Source: a virus
Virus record (IMG/VR): IMGVR_UViG_3300045988_128837
Coordinates: 23,861-87,860 of that record
Length of the DNA: 64,000 nt
Strand: one strand, 5' to 3'
In this document: positions 18,664-23,202 of the stretch, piece after piece
Layout: each line of letters begins with the position of its first letter
Position numbering within the stretch: the stretch's first letter is position 1
The notes under the pieces: model-generated
Told to the model about the DNA's origin: nothing
The model's database searches: none
What the model saw: only the letters and a program-made list of their open reading frames with translations
Program-made: the position numbers and the translations under genes

Positions 18664-19143
18664 CTATTTTATTGTCACATTATGTACACAACAATAATGT
18701 TTCATCTCTAAATAAAAATCTACAACATATTGACACAGACCAATATACTCACTAAACACCCTATCAGACATCTCAATCCACCAAGAATGAAGTTTTTCAT
18801 TACCATCATTTAAGATCAATACTGGAATATTGTTTTCATGAGCAATAGCAATTTCCATAGATGTGCCAATACTCTTTGGATCATTTGCATACACAATAAT
18901 CAAATCACTATTCTTAACAAGACGAGTATCAAATCGCATAACTTCTTTTTCTGTCTCATGTTTGTTATTTTCGAAATTGTAATAATCTACTGGATTGATA
19001 ATACTAACTGGTTTTACATCAACCAATGATTTCTCGCAGCAACTATTGATACACCTACAAATTTCTTTTCTCCACGCATCCTGTTCTTCAAACGACAGAT
19101 CCTGCATACCGCCTGCTAAATAAATCTGAAATACGTCACTCAC
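18664..19143 (-). CDS. Nucleoside 2-deoxyribosyltransferase-like (Rcl / N-deoxyribosyltransferase family) protein.
   Basis: N-terminal IYLAGGM. Catalytic-Glu-like motif GTSMEIAIA. Confidence 0.5.
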   Translation of the reverse strand: MSDVFQIYLAGGMQDLSFEEQDAWRKEICRCINSCCEKSLVDVKPVSIINPVDYYNFENNKHETEKEVMRFDTRLVKNSDLIIVYANDPKSIGTSMEIAIAHENNIPVLILNDGNEKLHSWWIEMSDRVFSEYIGLCQYVVDFYLEMKHYCCVHNVTIK

Positions 19144-19684
19144 TATTTCTTTCTCCTTTCACAATATAGGACTCAATCAATCCTTTTCTTAAGCGATCAT
19201 TCATATCCTGAATGGCTTCCTCAATTGTTTTAAATTTACATGAACAAATATGCTCTTTTGTCAAATTAACAAATGAATATGTGCCATCGGATTTGTTCTT
19301 AAAAATAACCACCACTGATTCTTCCCCATTTGGCTTCTTAACAATAAATCTGAGCGCACCTTTTTGTGTTTCCTGTTTGTTTTCAAGTAAGATAGTATAA
19401 TTGATTTTTAACCAGCTACCATCTGCCCATACTTGTTTAATTTTTTCTTCAGCATTTTGAAGTTTACAATGTCTATAATCAATACTCTCGATATTATAGA
19501 CAAATGATTCAATGGCTTCTTTATCATTTTTTATTGTGATTTGACCATGCGTTCCATTTCTTCCATCTGCAATCGCATCAATAAATTCTTCTACAGTATA
19601 ATCTTTATCAAGCACAACATCATATTTAGTATGTTTATCGTTATCAGAACGTGGTTGTTTTATTAATTCAAACATTTCTATCAT
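19136..19684 (-). CDS. Hypothetical protein.
   Basis: ORF only. Overlaps the end of the upstream HTH gene. Confidence 0.35.
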   Translation of the reverse strand: MIEMFELIKQPRSDNDKHTKYDVVLDKDYTVEEFIDAIADGRNGTHGQITIKNDKEAIESFVYNIESIDYRHCKLQNAEEKIKQVWADGSWLKINYTILLENKQETQKGALRFIVKKPNGEESVVVIFKNKSDGTYSFVNLTKEHICSCKFKTIEEAIQDMNDRLRKGLIESYIVKGERNSE

Positions 19685-19937
19685 CTACCTTCTTATTAAA
19701 TGTCTCTTGTAAATTTAACCATAACCGCCCATCGTCAGCGAACCCATAATGATCTGCCATTGCTTTTGCAAATTCTTTTGTAACACTTTGTGATCCGTTA
19801 ATCAGCCCTTGCACATAATCAACATCCATGCCGATTTTACTCGCAAGCTGATAAGGAGTTATCCTGCAAGATTCAACAAATTCTTCTAAGCATTCGCCAG
19901 GATGAAAAGCAATTTCGTCTCCAATCTTTACATACAT
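19668..19937 (-). CDS. HigA-like XRE-family HTH protein.
   Basis: HPGECLEEF...ITPYQLASKIGMDVDYVQGLINGSQSVTKEFAKAMADHYG matches the HigA antidote pattern. Confidence 0.5.
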   Translation of the reverse strand: MYVKIGDEIAFHPGECLEEFVESCRITPYQLASKIGMDVDYVQGLINGSQSVTKEFAKAMADHYGFADDGRLWLNLQETFNKKVDDRNV

Positions 19938-19939
19938 TT

Positions 19940-20773
19940 TTACACCATTCCTCTCACAATTCGTTCATTTGTTGTCATCAAGAAATTATTGATACGACCC
20001 CAATCTGGTTCGTCTGGTAAATCAGTATTCATATAATCATAATCAAATTGATAAAGTAATCCTTCAATAAAAACATCGTATGATTGATTTGGGAAATATT
20101 CTGTATGCTCATTGTGTTTGCCAAATCTATATGTTTTATGCGTACTATTGTATCCTTCTTTGATCTTTACAAGATCTTTTCCTATGTCGTCCATAGATCC
20201 TAACATTGTTCCGTTATGTAATAATTCAATGCCCTGTAACAATAATCGAACTGCATGCATCATTGATTTATTAGCGTATCGTTCTGCCTTTTGCTTTTCT
20301 TTCTCTGAATCTTTATTTTTATAATACTTAAAACTCGTTCGAGTCAGACAATCACAAATATATCCTTTATATGCATGATAAACTCTCTTAGATAAGAACA
20401 TATCTCTATTTTTGATCAACTCCATACCAATATCGGATACATACAAATAACGGTCTGGCGCAAAATATAACAGCTCTAAAAACGTAGGATTACCCTTAGC
20501 AAGCATGTTGATCATCTTAATATGCGAATATAGCACAGCATCAACGTCTTTACGATCATCGGTCTTCTCAAGATTGTTTTGATTATTGTTCAACAAAATC
20601 TCTCTTTTATCACTAAGGAAAACACCACGTAAATCAATGTCAGAATCCTCTGTATTTGTTCCGTAGGCATAACTTCCACCTAACGTTAGAAAAGCGATTT
20701 TGTGCGGATAATCTCGCAAAAAGTCATACTCTGTAGACGAGTTTATGTAATCCTTTACTTCTTCAATTGTCAT
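19940..20773 (-). CDS. Pol-beta superfamily nucleotidyltransferase (RlaP/PF10127-like). Start taken at the internal MTIEEV to avoid overlap with the sigma gene.
   Basis: NTase motif GGSYAYGTNTEDSDIDLRGVF. Downstream KGNPTFLELLY. Confidence 0.5.
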   Translation of the reverse strand: MTIEEVKDYINSSTEYDFLRDYPHKIAFLTLGGSYAYGTNTEDSDIDLRGVFLSDKREILLNNNQNNLEKTDDRKDVDAVLYSHIKMINMLAKGNPTFLELLYFAPDRYLYVSDIGMELIKNRDMFLSKRVYHAYKGYICDCLTRTSFKYYKNKDSEKEKQKAERYANKSMMHAVRLLLQGIELLHNGTMLGSMDDIGKDLVKIKEGYNSTHKTYRFGKHNEHTEYFPNQSYDVFIEGLLYQFDYDYMNTDLPDEPDWGRINNFLMTTNERIVRGMV

Positions 20774-20786
20774 GATCTCACCTCTT

Positions 20787-21368: not shown

Positions 21369-21831
21369 ATTGAATATGTGTACAAATCAACTTTCTTTTA
21401 ATATAAGTATCCAGACATGCCATCCCATCCAAAGTATGACTATATTTAGCAATACACTCATTTCTTACTCTTCTCAGATATTCATCACATTCTTTTGATG
21501 TAATTTCTAAATATTCATTCGACACATATAAAGCATTTTCTCTATTAACATCTTCGACAAATATGTTATAAATAATTTCATTGCCAAAATTTATTCCTGG
21601 AACAACTTCTTTGATTCTATATTGGTGTGTAATTTTATTTAAACATAAATCAATAGTATCGATATTTTGATTTAACATAGCTTCCAACAAATTAACAGGC
21701 ATGTGGTAATTCTGGGCGATATAATATAGCTTATTTAATTCAACATATCCAATTTGCTTTTCGAGATTTTCAAAATGATTGTACACTTTATACTGCTGTT
21801 TATGTACAAAATTCACTTTGCAATTATCCAT
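21304..21831 (-). CDS. Hypothetical protein.
   Basis: ORF only. Confidence 0.35.
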   Translation of the reverse strand: MDNCKVNFVHKQQYKVYNHFENLEKQIGYVELNKLYYIAQNYHMPVNLLEAMLNQNIDTIDLCLNKITHQYRIKEVVPGINFGNEIIYNIFVEDVNRENALYVSNEYLEITSKECDEYLRRVRNECIAKYSHTLDGMACLDTYIKRKLICTHIQFVQHMEKFIKEQEAKKCEETK

Positions 21832-21834
21832 ACA

Positions 21835-22782
21835 TCACACTCCTAGCACATATTTATCACTTCTAAATCCAGCTGCATTCGGATGACCGCCACCACCATA
21901 TTTCACAGCAAGTTCATATACATTTACTTTATCCTGTTCTGCTGATCGTAACTGATATTCCCATATACTACCATCGAATGAGAAACCAATAAACATATCA
22001 TATTTTGAAGCGTCTATAGATTCAAAGAAGTCAGAATTGATTAAAGCTCGGTTGATCGCATAGACTTTATATCCCTCAAATGTGGTTTCAAATCCATATG
22101 CTCTAAGATACTGTTTTGCAGTAGAAGACAGATAATCCTTAATTCCTAAACCATCTTCAATCATATAATCAGTCAATCTCTCAGCTTCACATAATCCCAT
22201 ATCTCCATTTAACTTATCTAATAAATAGTTCATGACATCAAAATCATATGACTCAAATGCATAATGGAACGCCTTAACATATTCTTCTGATTTTTTACTC
22301 CACGAGAATGTATCCCACAGAGCTGTATATTTTGCCAACTGAGGAGTATTTTTAGAGAATTCTCGTAATAAAGAGGTCACATATTTCTCATCCGTCCTCT
22401 CAATTTGCTCCCAATCTTCGTCACATATATATTTAAAGTACAACCATGTCAAATTCGCTCCTGAAATACCTTCTCCAGTGATTCGAATTCCTTTTACATT
22501 GCACTTAAAATCTTTATACGCTTCAATCGTAGATTGGTGATGATCGATCCAAAACACATTCTTTGTGATACTTAGCAGTTGCCACATTTCTTCTGGTTCA
22601 ATACTGTAGTCTACAATGAATACAAATTCATCCTGCCCAATGTCATAAAACGGGAATTTCATGCCGTAATTAATTTTTCGGAAGTCTTCTGGTTTAAACT
22701 CTAAACCTCGCTGTTCGCAAGCTTTTCTGACATAGAAACCAGATACGATGCCGTCCTGATCAACATGATAAAAACATTTCAT
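21835..22782 (-). CDS. DHH/DHHA1 phosphoesterase (NrnA/oligoribonuclease or cyclic-nucleotide phosphodiesterase-like).
   Basis: DHH motifs HVDQDG, FWIDHHQS. DHHA1 motif YGGGGHPNAAGF. Confidence 0.65.
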   Translation of the reverse strand: MKCFYHVDQDGIVSGFYVRKACEQRGLEFKPEDFRKINYGMKFPFYDIGQDEFVFIVDYSIEPEEMWQLLSITKNVFWIDHHQSTIEAYKDFKCNVKGIRITGEGISGANLTWLYFKYICDEDWEQIERTDEKYVTSLLREFSKNTPQLAKYTALWDTFSWSKKSEEYVKAFHYAFESYDFDVMNYLLDKLNGDMGLCEAERLTDYMIEDGLGIKDYLSSTAKQYLRAYGFETTFEGYKVYAINRALINSDFFESIDASKYDMFIGFSFDGSIWEYQLRSAEQDKVNVYELAVKYGGGGHPNAAGFRSDKYVLGV

Positions 22783-22788
22783 TCTTCT

Positions 22789-23202
22789 TTACCCCTTTCG
22801 TTTATTCATTAAGTTAAGAAAATCTGCAACATCCTGCATAGCATGTACGCCAGAATATACTTTAATACGATTTTCTTTCAATAAATTTTCGACTGCTTTT
22901 AAACTGTGGCTCATCTGCTTAGATTCTTTATTCTTTTGTTCCTGATAGAGATTAAGAAAGATCACTTTATCTGGTCGCTTATGAGAATCATCAACTACTT
23001 CTGCAATACTGTATACTCCTTTAATACCATTCGTAATGCCATACAGAACATAGTCAGATTCTTCTCTTTCCTTGACTTCCCGCAGTCGGTCTTCTTCACT
23101 CCAATTTTTTACGATTGGATTATAATAATCACAATCCAACATCTTCTGTAGCTGGTCTCTCCACTTCCATCCAGAGCATGTTCCGCCTAAAAACACTTTC
23201 AT
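22789..23202 (-). CDS. Divergent nucleoside 2-deoxyribosyltransferase-like paralog.
   Basis: MKVFLGGTCSGWKWRDQ parallels IYLAGGM...WRKE in 18664-19143. Possible catalytic Glu in SIAEVVD. Confidence 0.3.
   Translation of the reverse strand: MKVFLGGTCSGWKWRDQLQKMLDCDYYNPIVKNWSEEDRLREVKEREESDYVLYGITNGIKGVYSIAEVVDDSHKRPDKVIFLNLYQEQKNKESKQMSHSLKAVENLLKENRIKVYSGVHAMQDVADFLNLMNKRKG

Follow-up and report, generated by a model that had tools for sequence, protein, structure and literature searches.

A DHH-DHHA1 phosphoesterase gene linked to tRNA-end enzymes in gut phages and its possible part in tRNA-end repair

Immunity that targets tRNA is a growing theme, and the counter-measures of phages are poorly charted beyond the Pnkp and Rnl enzymes of T4. 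One family that acts at RNA ends is RlaP, of which PfRlaP (Pseudomonas fluorescens) and PaRlaP have been characterized biochemically: one to two nucleoside monophosphates are added to the 3'-OH of RNA, and the aminoacylation of over-damaged tRNA is restored in vitro. Together with the CCA-adding enzyme, Thg1, and the peptidyl-tRNA hydrolase PTH2, RlaP has been counted among the RNA-repair components of phages, whereas DHH proteins were treated apart as putative signal phosphodiesterases (Iyer et al., 2021). In cellular organisms, one cluster among the DHH-DHHA1 proteins of Bacilli has been matched to CCA-adding enzymes (Weiss et al., 2022), a correspondence that we read as a fusion of DHH-DHHA1 and CCA domains. 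Here we describe a stretch of 64,000 nt from a virus (IMG/VR record IMGVR_UViG_3300045988_128837, positions 23,861–87,860; hereafter the window, numbered from its first letter) that encodes a stand-alone DHH-DHHA1 phosphoesterase (hereafter the DHH protein) three genes away from an RlaP-family nucleotidyltransferase (NTase). In many gut phages the genes of related DHH proteins are linked to those of CCA-adding enzymes, RlaP, and Thg1-like proteins, and this linkage, which is tight and reciprocal, appears to be undescribed in the literature searched, although every domain family involved is already known.

The genes in question occupy positions 18,664–23,202, which an earlier note, made from the letters of this stretch, had described as a nucleotide-processing island with two nucleoside 2-deoxyribosyltransferase (NDT)-like genes, a Pol-beta NTase, a HigA-like helix-turn-helix (HTH) protein, a sigma factor, and an NrnA-like DHH enzyme. 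This interval extends exactly from the stop of NDT1 to the start of NDT2 and contains eight tightly packed open reading frames (ORFs), all on the minus strand and transcribed in the order NDT2, DHH-DHHA1, g6, sigma factor, NTase, HTH, g2, NDT1 (Table 1). Family scans confirmed the domains of all named genes at their positions; g2 and g6 were absent from the previous gene list.

The motifs HVDQDG (residues 6–11), DHH (80–82), and GGGGHPNAAG (296–305) that had been reported for the DHH protein are real, and alignment indicates that its catalytic motifs are intact: across 39 homologues, with identities as low as approximately 41%, no exchange occurs at H6, D10, D58, D80-H81-H82, D157, and G297-G298-G299-H300, and D8 and R279 are nearly invariant. 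As had also been recognized, the protein is distinct from RecJ, which has a gene of its own (DHH and RecJ_OB domains) inside an SPbeta-like replication module. The DHH protein matches phrog_4771 ("DHH phosphoesterase"; 5.7e-36), while Pfam DHH and DHHA1 yield 20.9 and 21.6 bits, under the gathering score. Its AlphaFold2 (AF2) model (pLDDT, the predicted local distance difference test, 93.3) retrieves exclusively DHH/DHHA1 structures, in a Foldseek search of the PDB at 12–17% identity and with no clear winner; taken together, the structural matches share 9–19% identity. With B. subtilis NrnA, CnpB/Rv2837c, Pde2/DhhP, and TmPDE it shares the two-domain architecture, a length of approximately 315 aa, the DHH motifs, and GGGH. 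The label NrnA-like is therefore right as a description of architecture. It is wrong as a statement of orthology, because the NrnA equivalog NF053633 scores 15.1 bits against a cutoff of 350 and the best PDB sequence-profile matches, which are NrnA-type (4ls9, 2.8e-5; SH1221; Rv2837c), run via the DHHA1 segment only; by these scores, the protein is only remotely related to NrnA, an enzyme defined by the 5'-3' hydrolysis of RNAs of 2–4 nt (Weiss et al., 2022). In our reading, the RxRxR-type phosphate-binding pattern of NrnA appears reduced to a single conserved arginine, R279.

The NTase is more than the generic Pol-beta enzyme proposed before. The Pol-beta assignment holds, and the match to PF10127 (1.6e-23; 84.1 bits, cutoff 23), in which residues 50–296 cover profile positions 14–248 of 249 including the C-terminal helical domain, firmly identifies it as an RlaP-family RNA 3'-end NTase. 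Among 54 family members taken from the loci studied, conservation is at least 90% at each of G62-G63-S64, D75, D77, and D108, and thus the G-S and three-Asp set of PfRlaP, for which three strictly conserved Asp have been described, and of NrdC.11 of T4 is present. M31 is conserved as well, and the gene of a close relative was called at 277 aa; the true start is probably this methionine (ATG at 20773). Like many RlaPs the window copy is phage-encoded, but whereas the characterized enzymes reside in operons with RtcB/RtcA or a 5'-phosphate RNA ligase, no ligase was found in the 64-kb window, and the partners are instead the DHH phosphoesterase, the HTH protein, the ORFan g2, and an NDT-like gene.

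The linkage between DHH and tRNA-end enzymes was followed through related loci (handles beginning with L), whose ORFs were assigned by hidden Markov models (HMMs) built from window and locus proteins, with identities anchored by precomputed Pfam annotations. In L001, where the DHH protein is 54% identical to that of the window, the order DHH-x-sigma-RlaP-g2-x-NDT1 is retained. At 42% identity (L004, L005) RlaP is followed by a 313-aa protein, a CCA-adding enzyme (PF01743 and PF13735, with or without HD), DHH, and Thg1, which adjoins DHH in L004. The same RlaP-(313 aa)-CCA-DHH order was found in L068, L080–84, L090, L091, and L098 (39–44% identity), of which L090 is a contig from the genome assembly of Lachnospiraceae bacterium A4 and L091 one from that of Eubacterium plexicaudatum. 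DHH directly adjoins RlaP in L093 (RlaP-DHH), and L070 has the order RlaP-x-DHH, together with a protein that contains a P-loop and matches the CCA profile, and with PTH2 eight genes away. Looser arrangements are PTH2 ... RlaP-365 aa-CCA ... Band_7-DHH in L086 and Thg1 ... PTH2 ... metallophosphoesterase ... DHH in L071–76, L087, and L095; in these loci and in L070, DHH lies within 5–11 genes of Thg1, PTH2, CCA, or RlaP. The linked DHH proteins are 39–54% identical to that of the window and 45–70% among lineages, and the genes on their far side differ. Overall, neighbours of this kind were seen for 7 of 34 DHH clusters (60% identity); the clusters without them are mostly remote homologues (<35% identity) from other phyla.

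A reciprocal test took the phage CCA-adding enzyme, upstream of which RlaP is usually found, as the anchor of 80 loci from IMG/VR. DHH was the next gene in 54 of them and stood one gene further in one, but these 55 cases are not 55 independent events, because the anchored loci are close relatives (70–79% identity). A protein of 313–365 aa is always located between RlaP and the CCA-adding enzyme (L004:5701-6642, L086:2352-3449, and relatives), with the invariant motifs 'FISIDMKKANF' and 'VVFFSNDEIV'; it has no Pfam or PHROG match and may be an uncharacterized enzyme of the cassette. A relationship to Thg1, considered for its 'D...SDE' pattern, obtained no support from hhalign. In anchored loci without DHH, the slot next to the CCA-adding enzyme holds, according to sequence motifs, a 246-aa SIR2/sirtuin-like protein (L176, L184, L216) or a calcineurin-type metallophosphoesterase (L196:7378-7950; L184:8215-8988). 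The related phages and the cellular DHH-DHHA1/CCA proteins (Weiss et al., 2022) both associate DHH-DHHA1 with a class II tRNA nucleotidyltransferase. The phages, however, have separate genes, ordered CCA then DHH, and in the window phage a DHH gene but no CCA-adding enzyme was found.

Starting from the observed gene identities, motif integrity, mosaicism, and linkage, we infer the substrate of the DHH protein and every step assigned to it as follows. A host effector would damage or block tRNA ends. DHH-DHHA1 would trim the end or free it of what blocks it, be it a 3'-phosphate, a cyclic phosphate, or surplus nucleotides, as suggested by family chemistry and the linkage, and RlaP would then re-add nucleotides, a task that in the relatives would also fall to the CCA-adding enzyme, with the Thg1-like enzyme taking part. 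The cassette of these relatives would consist of RlaP, the 313-aa protein, the CCA-adding enzyme, and DHH, sometimes with the Thg1-like 3'-5' polymerase and peptidyl-tRNA hydrolase nearby, and the DHH and RlaP genes of the window would be its local remnant. The reading we rank first, albeit tentatively, has the DHH protein process ends, as a phosphoesterase or exonuclease, when the phage repairs tRNA termini. Even more guardedly, we suggest that large phages of gut Bacillota may perform a ligase-independent repair of tRNA termini. In it, DHH would clean acceptor ends that are, for instance, truncated, over-extended, 3'-phosphorylated, or pyrophosphorylated, whereupon the CCA-adding enzyme, RlaP, and the Thg1-like protein would rebuild them, and acceptor-end defences would thereby be countered, the window representing a reduced version with DHH and RlaP beside Tad2-like sponges.

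Such a system would combine familiar and unfamiliar parts. An RNA-repair 'syntax' of ligase, NTase, kinase/phosphoesterase, and scaffold was reportedly formulated by Burroughs and Aravind in 2016, who are also said to have proposed a scaffold of Band-7 protein and tRNA-like RNA. The window recalls the latter with an SPFH/Band-7 gene and a tRNA-like RNA, which has canonical acceptor, D, and T arms, while an 81-nt AU-rich insert replaces the anticodon arm. ARAGORN called no tRNA at this position, yet across 44 relatives the RNA keeps 93–100% identity, although most of their DHH proteins share only approximately 81%. The two together form the other RNA-repair-type feature of the window and possibly speak for tRNA-end repair. 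In common with this syntax and with T4-type repair by Pnkp and Rnl, an NTase (RlaP), a phosphoesterase (DHH), and the possible SPFH/Band-7 and tRNA-like scaffold occur within 64 kb, to which related phages add the CCA-adding enzyme, the Thg1-like protein, and PTH2. The difference is that the window yielded neither a ligase nor a kinase, and the proposed repair would act at tRNA termini without ligation.

Besides the relatedness of the CCA-anchored loci, several observations weigh against tRNA-end repair. Pfam and PHROG scans of the ORFs in the 64-kb window found neither a CCA-adding enzyme nor Thg1, and likewise no polynucleotide kinase or RNA ligase, and DHH and RlaP are separated by g6 and the sigma factor. 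The DHH protein is not strictly dependent on RlaP, because L028 and L033 keep DHH-g6-sigma without RlaP and a group with 46–48% DHH identity (L002, L056–67) has no RlaP nearby. The nearest upstream neighbours of DHH in the window are predicted signal sponges, and one distant DHH gene adjoins a gene of the Acb2/Tad1 type (L088). Among homologues below approximately 35% identity, from other phyla, no RNA-end enzymes were seen near DHH, although the locally built HMMs may miss divergent ones. Linkage in dense phage genomes can also reflect shared expression timing rather than a shared pathway. Finally, we know of no DHH-DHHA1 enzyme that heals tRNA ends. If DHH should nevertheless be the end-healing part of an RlaP/CCA/Thg1-like cassette, this would be a new biochemical role for the DHH-DHHA1 fold, would hint at the role of the unexplained DHH module in cellular CCA-adding enzymes, and would provide a testable function for a family of thousands of 50%-identity clusters. 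Whether the DHH protein acts on tRNA ends or degrades immune signals, the locus brings together a small set of candidate genes for counter-defence in phages of Clostridia and Erysipelotrichales that are uncultivated.

The surroundings of DHH were compared in 51 close relatives (DHH 79–97% identical), in each of which ORFs were called. The order DHH-g6-sigma is invariant (51/51), and a sigma-like gene follows DHH also in the group with 46–48% identity. RlaP comes after the sigma factor in 48 of the 51; in L028 and L033 the replication module comes straight after sigma, and one further locus is cut short. The block from RlaP to the PcfJ-like gene is lacking in two relatives, and L001, L012, and L017 have RlaP-g2-(x)-NDT1 but no HTH gene. 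The slot upstream of DHH is variable, containing a pair of Tad2-like genes (26/51), NDT2 (22/51), a 209-aa protein (7/51), or other genes (7/51). Where present, the Tad2-like pair is always directly upstream of (NDT2-)DHH; outside this clade it was seen once, 10 genes away. The 209-aa protein (L027:9321-9950 and six other loci; also L138:5419-6048) begins with 'LYLIGGALREF...DIDVVIDT', reminiscent of the head of a class II CCA/poly(A) NTase ('GGxxRE...DxD'), a resemblance that we treat as a lead, Pfam and the PDB giving no match and hhalign to a CCA-adding enzyme E 0.13. On a 6.7-kb metagenomic contig (P0063) residues 1–200 of DHH are joined in frame to the last approximately 55 residues of g2, the deletion removing DHHA1, g6, sigma, RlaP, HTH, and most of g2. 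Since the flanks are mosaic, the HTH gene and the RlaP block can be lost, and a deletion variant exists, the interval consists of separable, partly dispensable modules and not of a single machine, and the single island of the earlier note dissolves. We read it as three units: (1) the variable slot with the Tad2-like pair and NDT2, (2) DHH-g6 followed by sigma, and (3) RlaP-HTH-g2-NDT1. It belongs to a mosaic neighbourhood of accessory and counter-defence genes, and the three readings that survive (tRNA-end repair and the first two alternatives discussed below) are all counter-defence or accessory functions.

Table 1. Position, strand, and supporting evidence of the features considered in the 64-kb window.
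Feature	Coordinates	Strand	Evidence or remark
DHH-DHHA1 phosphoesterase, stand-alone, 315 aa	21835-22782	minus	DHH motifs, phrog_4771, AF2 fold
RlaP-family Pol-beta NTase, ORF 307 aa, likely product 277 aa	19940-20863	minus	PF10127
g6, 175 aa, no assigned family	21304-21831	minus	always after DHH in window clade
Phage sigma-70-family sigma factor, ORF 193 aa, start uncertain	20787-21368	minus	TIGR02937, phrog_351
Small HTH (Xre/HigA-like) protein, 89 aa	19668-19937	minus	HTH_31, 29.6 bits vs 27
g2, 182 aa, clade-restricted, no assigned family	19136-19684	minus	overlaps HTH gene and NDT1
NDT1, NDT/Rcl-superfamily, 159 aa, last of the RlaP-HTH-g2-NDT1 string	18664-19143	minus	PF05014, PF15891, phrog_355
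NDT2, NDT-like, 137 aa, variable accessory gene	22789-23202	minus	PF15891
Tad2-like protein, 99 aa (second of pair)	23199-23498	minus	PF11195, 45.3 bits vs 25, E 1.3e-11; overlaps NDT2 start by 4 nt
Tad2-like protein, 103 aa	23507-23818	minus	PF11195, 34.2 bits vs cutoff 25; outside 18664-23202
AT-rich inverted repeat/hairpin	18597-18643	minus	sequence reading and RNA fold; in 196-nt gap between NDT1 and PcfJ-like gene
tRNA-like RNA, 138 nt	30245-30382	minus	Rfam tRNA model, 46.4 bits vs gathering score 29
244-aa gene	30513-31247		between SPFH gene and tRNA-like RNA
SPFH/Band-7 gene	31262-32722		just upstream of tRNA-like RNA
RecJ	6377-8125		DHH and RecJ_OB; in replication module
PcfJ-like gene	17433-18467		directly after NDT1 gene string
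Bro-N/KilAC/ORF6N antirepressor-type genes	38489-39313; 52813-53907; 54466-55818; 57842-58555		scattered
Integrase-like gene, second	40620-41648		near IS110 transposase
IS110-family transposase	43025-44311		beside the next two genes
Calcineurin-type metallophosphoesterase	44442-45188		
Tyrosine-recombinase-like gene	45185-46135		

The alternative that survives best is that the DHH protein hydrolyses nucleotide signals, either the cyclic di- or oligonucleotides of CBASS (antiphage signalling based on cyclic oligonucleotides) and type III CRISPR's cyclic oligoadenylates (cOA) or the cyclic di-AMP (c-di-AMP) of the host, alongside the Tad2-like sponges; we consider this possible but rather doubtful. 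Tad2 (DUF2829/PF11195) is a family of anti-Thoeris sponges. Both Tad2-like genes of the window pass the PF11195 cutoff and in this resemble known members, while differing in that the predicted sponges form a tandem pair, variably present among close relatives. The earlier note, which had proposed the degradation of host immune signals, missed both genes, although they are the best support for this idea within the window, where they lie directly upstream of NDT2-DHH. Under tRNA-end repair, the pair would act separately, sequestering TIR-derived signals. Against signal degradation, the pair is just one of the cassettes that alternate in this slot, and half of the close relatives lack it. A variable cassette slot as found upstream of DHH is typical of anti-defence hot spots, and in L088 an Acb2_Tad1_hairpin gene is located immediately upstream of a 40%-identical DHH, but this adjacency is a single locus, and the commonest and reciprocal neighbours of DHH are RNA-end enzymes.

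To our knowledge, the DHH protein has no homology to the phage signal nucleases Acb1 or Apyc1, which have other folds, and this counts against signal degradation. Acting on immune signals is an idea already published as a prediction for DHH phosphodiesterases of jumbo phages, which were proposed to counter SMODS and type III CRISPR signals, and the papers cited in that survey, as far as it presents them, have GdpP, CnpB, and a membrane DHH-DHHA1 nuclease cleaving cyclic dinucleotides or cyclic tetra-adenylate (cA4) (Iyer et al., 2021). CnpB cleaves c-di-AMP, whereas Firmicute NrnA-type enzymes neither bind nor cleave it. In function, a signal-degrading DHH would be comparable to Acb1 (2H fold), Apyc1 (metallo-beta-lactamase fold), AcrIII-1, and Acb5, to which the DHH fold is unrelated, and no DHH-family phage enzyme shown to hydrolyse immune signals was found in the literature searched. 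If it did so, it would be the first DHH-type anti-CBASS or anti-cOA nuclease of a phage, a role that has so far only been predicted.

Less likely still is a role in nucleotide salvage, with DHH as a phage nanoRNase or oligonuclease that finishes the breakdown of host RNA and DNA and the NDT-like proteins reshaping the nucleos(t)ide pool. Two NDT-family proteins, as had been noticed before, indeed flank the window DHH. NDT1 scores just below the Pfam cutoffs (PF05014, 28.2 bits vs 28.8; PF15891, 27.6 vs 30) and also matches phrog_355; most of its homologues among the matches listed carry precomputed PF05014 and/or PF15891 annotations, and one, in Faecalibacillus intestinalis, is named NDT. As in the NDT/Rcl (DNPH1) superfamily, it has a conserved Asp and the S-x-G-T-x-x-E nucleophile motif (D72 and S91-x-G93-T94-x-x-E97, at least 95% conserved in 77 sequences), and the motif region aligns to the catalytic segment of the solved NDT 7m5h; NDT1 is probably an active N-glycosidase or transferase. 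NDT2 matches PF15891 in its N-terminal half (residues 2–66 only; E 3e-6, 28.0 bits vs 30) and has no PHROG or PDB sequence match, but E68 of its 'YSIAE' motif, equivalent to the superfamily's glutamate, is conserved in its eight distinct family members. The two are divergent, NDT2 more so than NDT1, and not recent paralogues (BLASTP E 7), and both are probably nucleos(t)ide N-glycosidases or transferases, nucleoside, deoxynucleoside monophosphate (dNMP), and ADP-ribose (ADPR)-type substrates being indistinguishable by sequence. The position of NDT2 between the Tad2-like genes and DHH invites the speculation that the NDT-like proteins are hydrolases of NAD- or ADPR-derived molecules.

Salvage would agree with the NrnA-type profile matches of DHH via DHHA1, with the label 'NrnB/cNMP (cyclic nucleotide monophosphate) phosphodiesterase' that the Joint Genome Institute (JGI) gives to some homologues, and with the vicinity of the replication module. 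In Xanthomonas phage RTH11, moreover, a dTMP kinase is encoded two genes from the DHH homologue and thymidylate synthase approximately 5 kb downstream, and distant NDT1 homologues in other SPbeta-like phages lie beside FolD-like genes, YopX, and an aminotransferase, with neither RlaP nor DHH nearby. In two 50%-identity representatives (P0200, P0204), DHH-DHHA1 is fused to a C-terminal P-loop domain of approximately 155 aa (Walker A FPGCGKT and HPCSGKS) with a weak match to AAA_18 (kinase-like), an arrangement that resembles the kinase plus phosphoesterase of Pnkp. This domain, however, belongs to phrog_4182 (function unassigned), and no stand-alone copy was present in any locus examined; its PDB matches, to designed repeat proteins, were discarded as spurious. 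In the window, the Pfam and PHROG scans detected no host-nucleic-acid nuclease, dNMP kinase, ribonucleotide reductase, thymidylate synthase, hydroxymethylase, or other base-modification gene. A modified-base pathway is therefore without support in the window. The salvage or editing of deoxynucleosides suggested by the earlier note stays plausible for the two NDT-like genes only. In addition, NDT2 is dispensable, Firmicute hosts generally have an NrnA of their own, and the tight, reciprocal adjacency of DHH to the CCA-adding enzyme and RlaP would be left unexplained.

It is improbable that the genes have no functional linkage at all and are unrelated early/middle accessory genes sharing position and expression timing alone. 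This would fit a window in which nearly all genes are on the minus strand in one co-directional, gap-free string, and a scan of 17–25 kb for promoters and terminators revealed sites no more frequent than in shuffled sequence. It would also fit the free exchange of cassettes around DHH and the existence of deletion variants. However, the adjacency of DHH to CCA or RlaP survives down to approximately 40% DHH identity while the other flanks change, and a cellular DHH-DHHA1 class associated with CCA-adding enzymes exists. We reject as very improbable the idea, also raised by the earlier note, that NTase and HTH form a toxin-antitoxin-like addiction or abortive-infection module. In its favour, their genes are 2 nt apart, the HTH protein matches both the HigA equivalog TIGR02607 (4.5e-10) and phrog_1381 ('plasmid antitoxin with HTH domain', 7e-10), and MntA_antitoxin is weakly matched over the NTase core. 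Against it, the HigA equivalog (39.2 bits vs 47.7) and MntA_antitoxin (24.3 bits vs 60) both remain under their cutoffs, the NTase is an RlaP up to its C-terminal helical domain, no HEPN, HigB, or RelE-like gene is adjacent (Pfam and PHROG scans of the neighbours gave RlaP and an ORFan), and L001, L012, and L017 lack HTH while RlaP-g2-NDT1 stay.

Of the HigA-like label, only the HTH part persists, as the protein passes generic Pfam HTH models. The sigma factor is well supported by TIGR02937 (55.6 bits vs 42.9) and phrog_351 (9e-24), with region 4 exactly at the Pfam cutoff (24.1 vs 24.1) and region 2 weak. For g6 no match was found in the Pfam, PHROG, or NCBIfam libraries. The C-terminal 70 aa of g2 are very conserved, but just 53 homologues were found, none with a Pfam domain, and its AF2 model (pLDDT 76.7) gave no Foldseek fold match (best E 0.28). 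From RlaP through HTH and g2 to NDT1, each gene overlaps the next or is at most 2 nt away from it, from which we infer a translationally coupled string. Its downstream boundary is likely marked by a hairpin whose 16-nt arms are perfect by our reading and for which the predicted fold pairs 19 bp (-23 kcal/mol, z = -6.8 vs shuffles). We do not call it a terminator, because it is not followed by a U-tract; it might serve in processing, in attenuation, or in protein binding.

The DHH family as a whole is large and diverse. Clustered at 50% identity, it counts 14,186 representatives with E<=1e-3 and 2,087 with E<=1e-30, and among the best 150 almost every protein is stand-alone and 270–330 aa long. 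It was recovered mainly from phage contigs of gut and other metagenomes, including 710 homologues in a large protein collection, many on contigs of 130–316 kb, and at least 528 relatives in IMG/VR. One representative carries a GIY-YIG/NUMOD domain, which we take to be a homing endonuclease. A tblastn search of GenBank phages returned only matches of <28% identity, in jumbo phages whose annotated neighbourhoods were uninformative except for RTH11. Homologues of approximately 30% identity also occur on contigs of alphaproteobacterial metagenome-assembled genomes (L113–L124, L130), in a conserved, chromosomal-looking operon of about 425-286-384-217-355-264-262 aa, DHH, and 391-571-282-481 aa, a context unrelated to the phage ones.

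The window has a GC content of approximately 33%, and the interval sits between the early genes and the replication module of a large phage. This module is SPbeta-like, encoding RecD2, Pol III alpha, RecJ, a primase, a DnaB-like helicase, and an AAA_24 protein, and the YorF and YorH families are annotated in relatives. Close relatives in IMG/VR are on contigs of about 130–166 kb; no near-identical DNA was found among GenBank phages. The host is a gut member of the Bacillota, plausibly of the Erysipelotrichales or Clostridia, because DHH homologues are encoded on contigs that belong to the assembled genomes of Lachnospiraceae bacterium A4, Eubacterium plexicaudatum ASF492, Clostridium, Ruminococcus, and Christensenella, and NDT1 is 84% identical to a deposited Faecalibacillus intestinalis protein whose 216-kb contig has the same gene order as the window. 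The IS110-family transposase and the recombinase- and integrase-like genes suggest a temperate lifestyle and the insertion of an insertion sequence.

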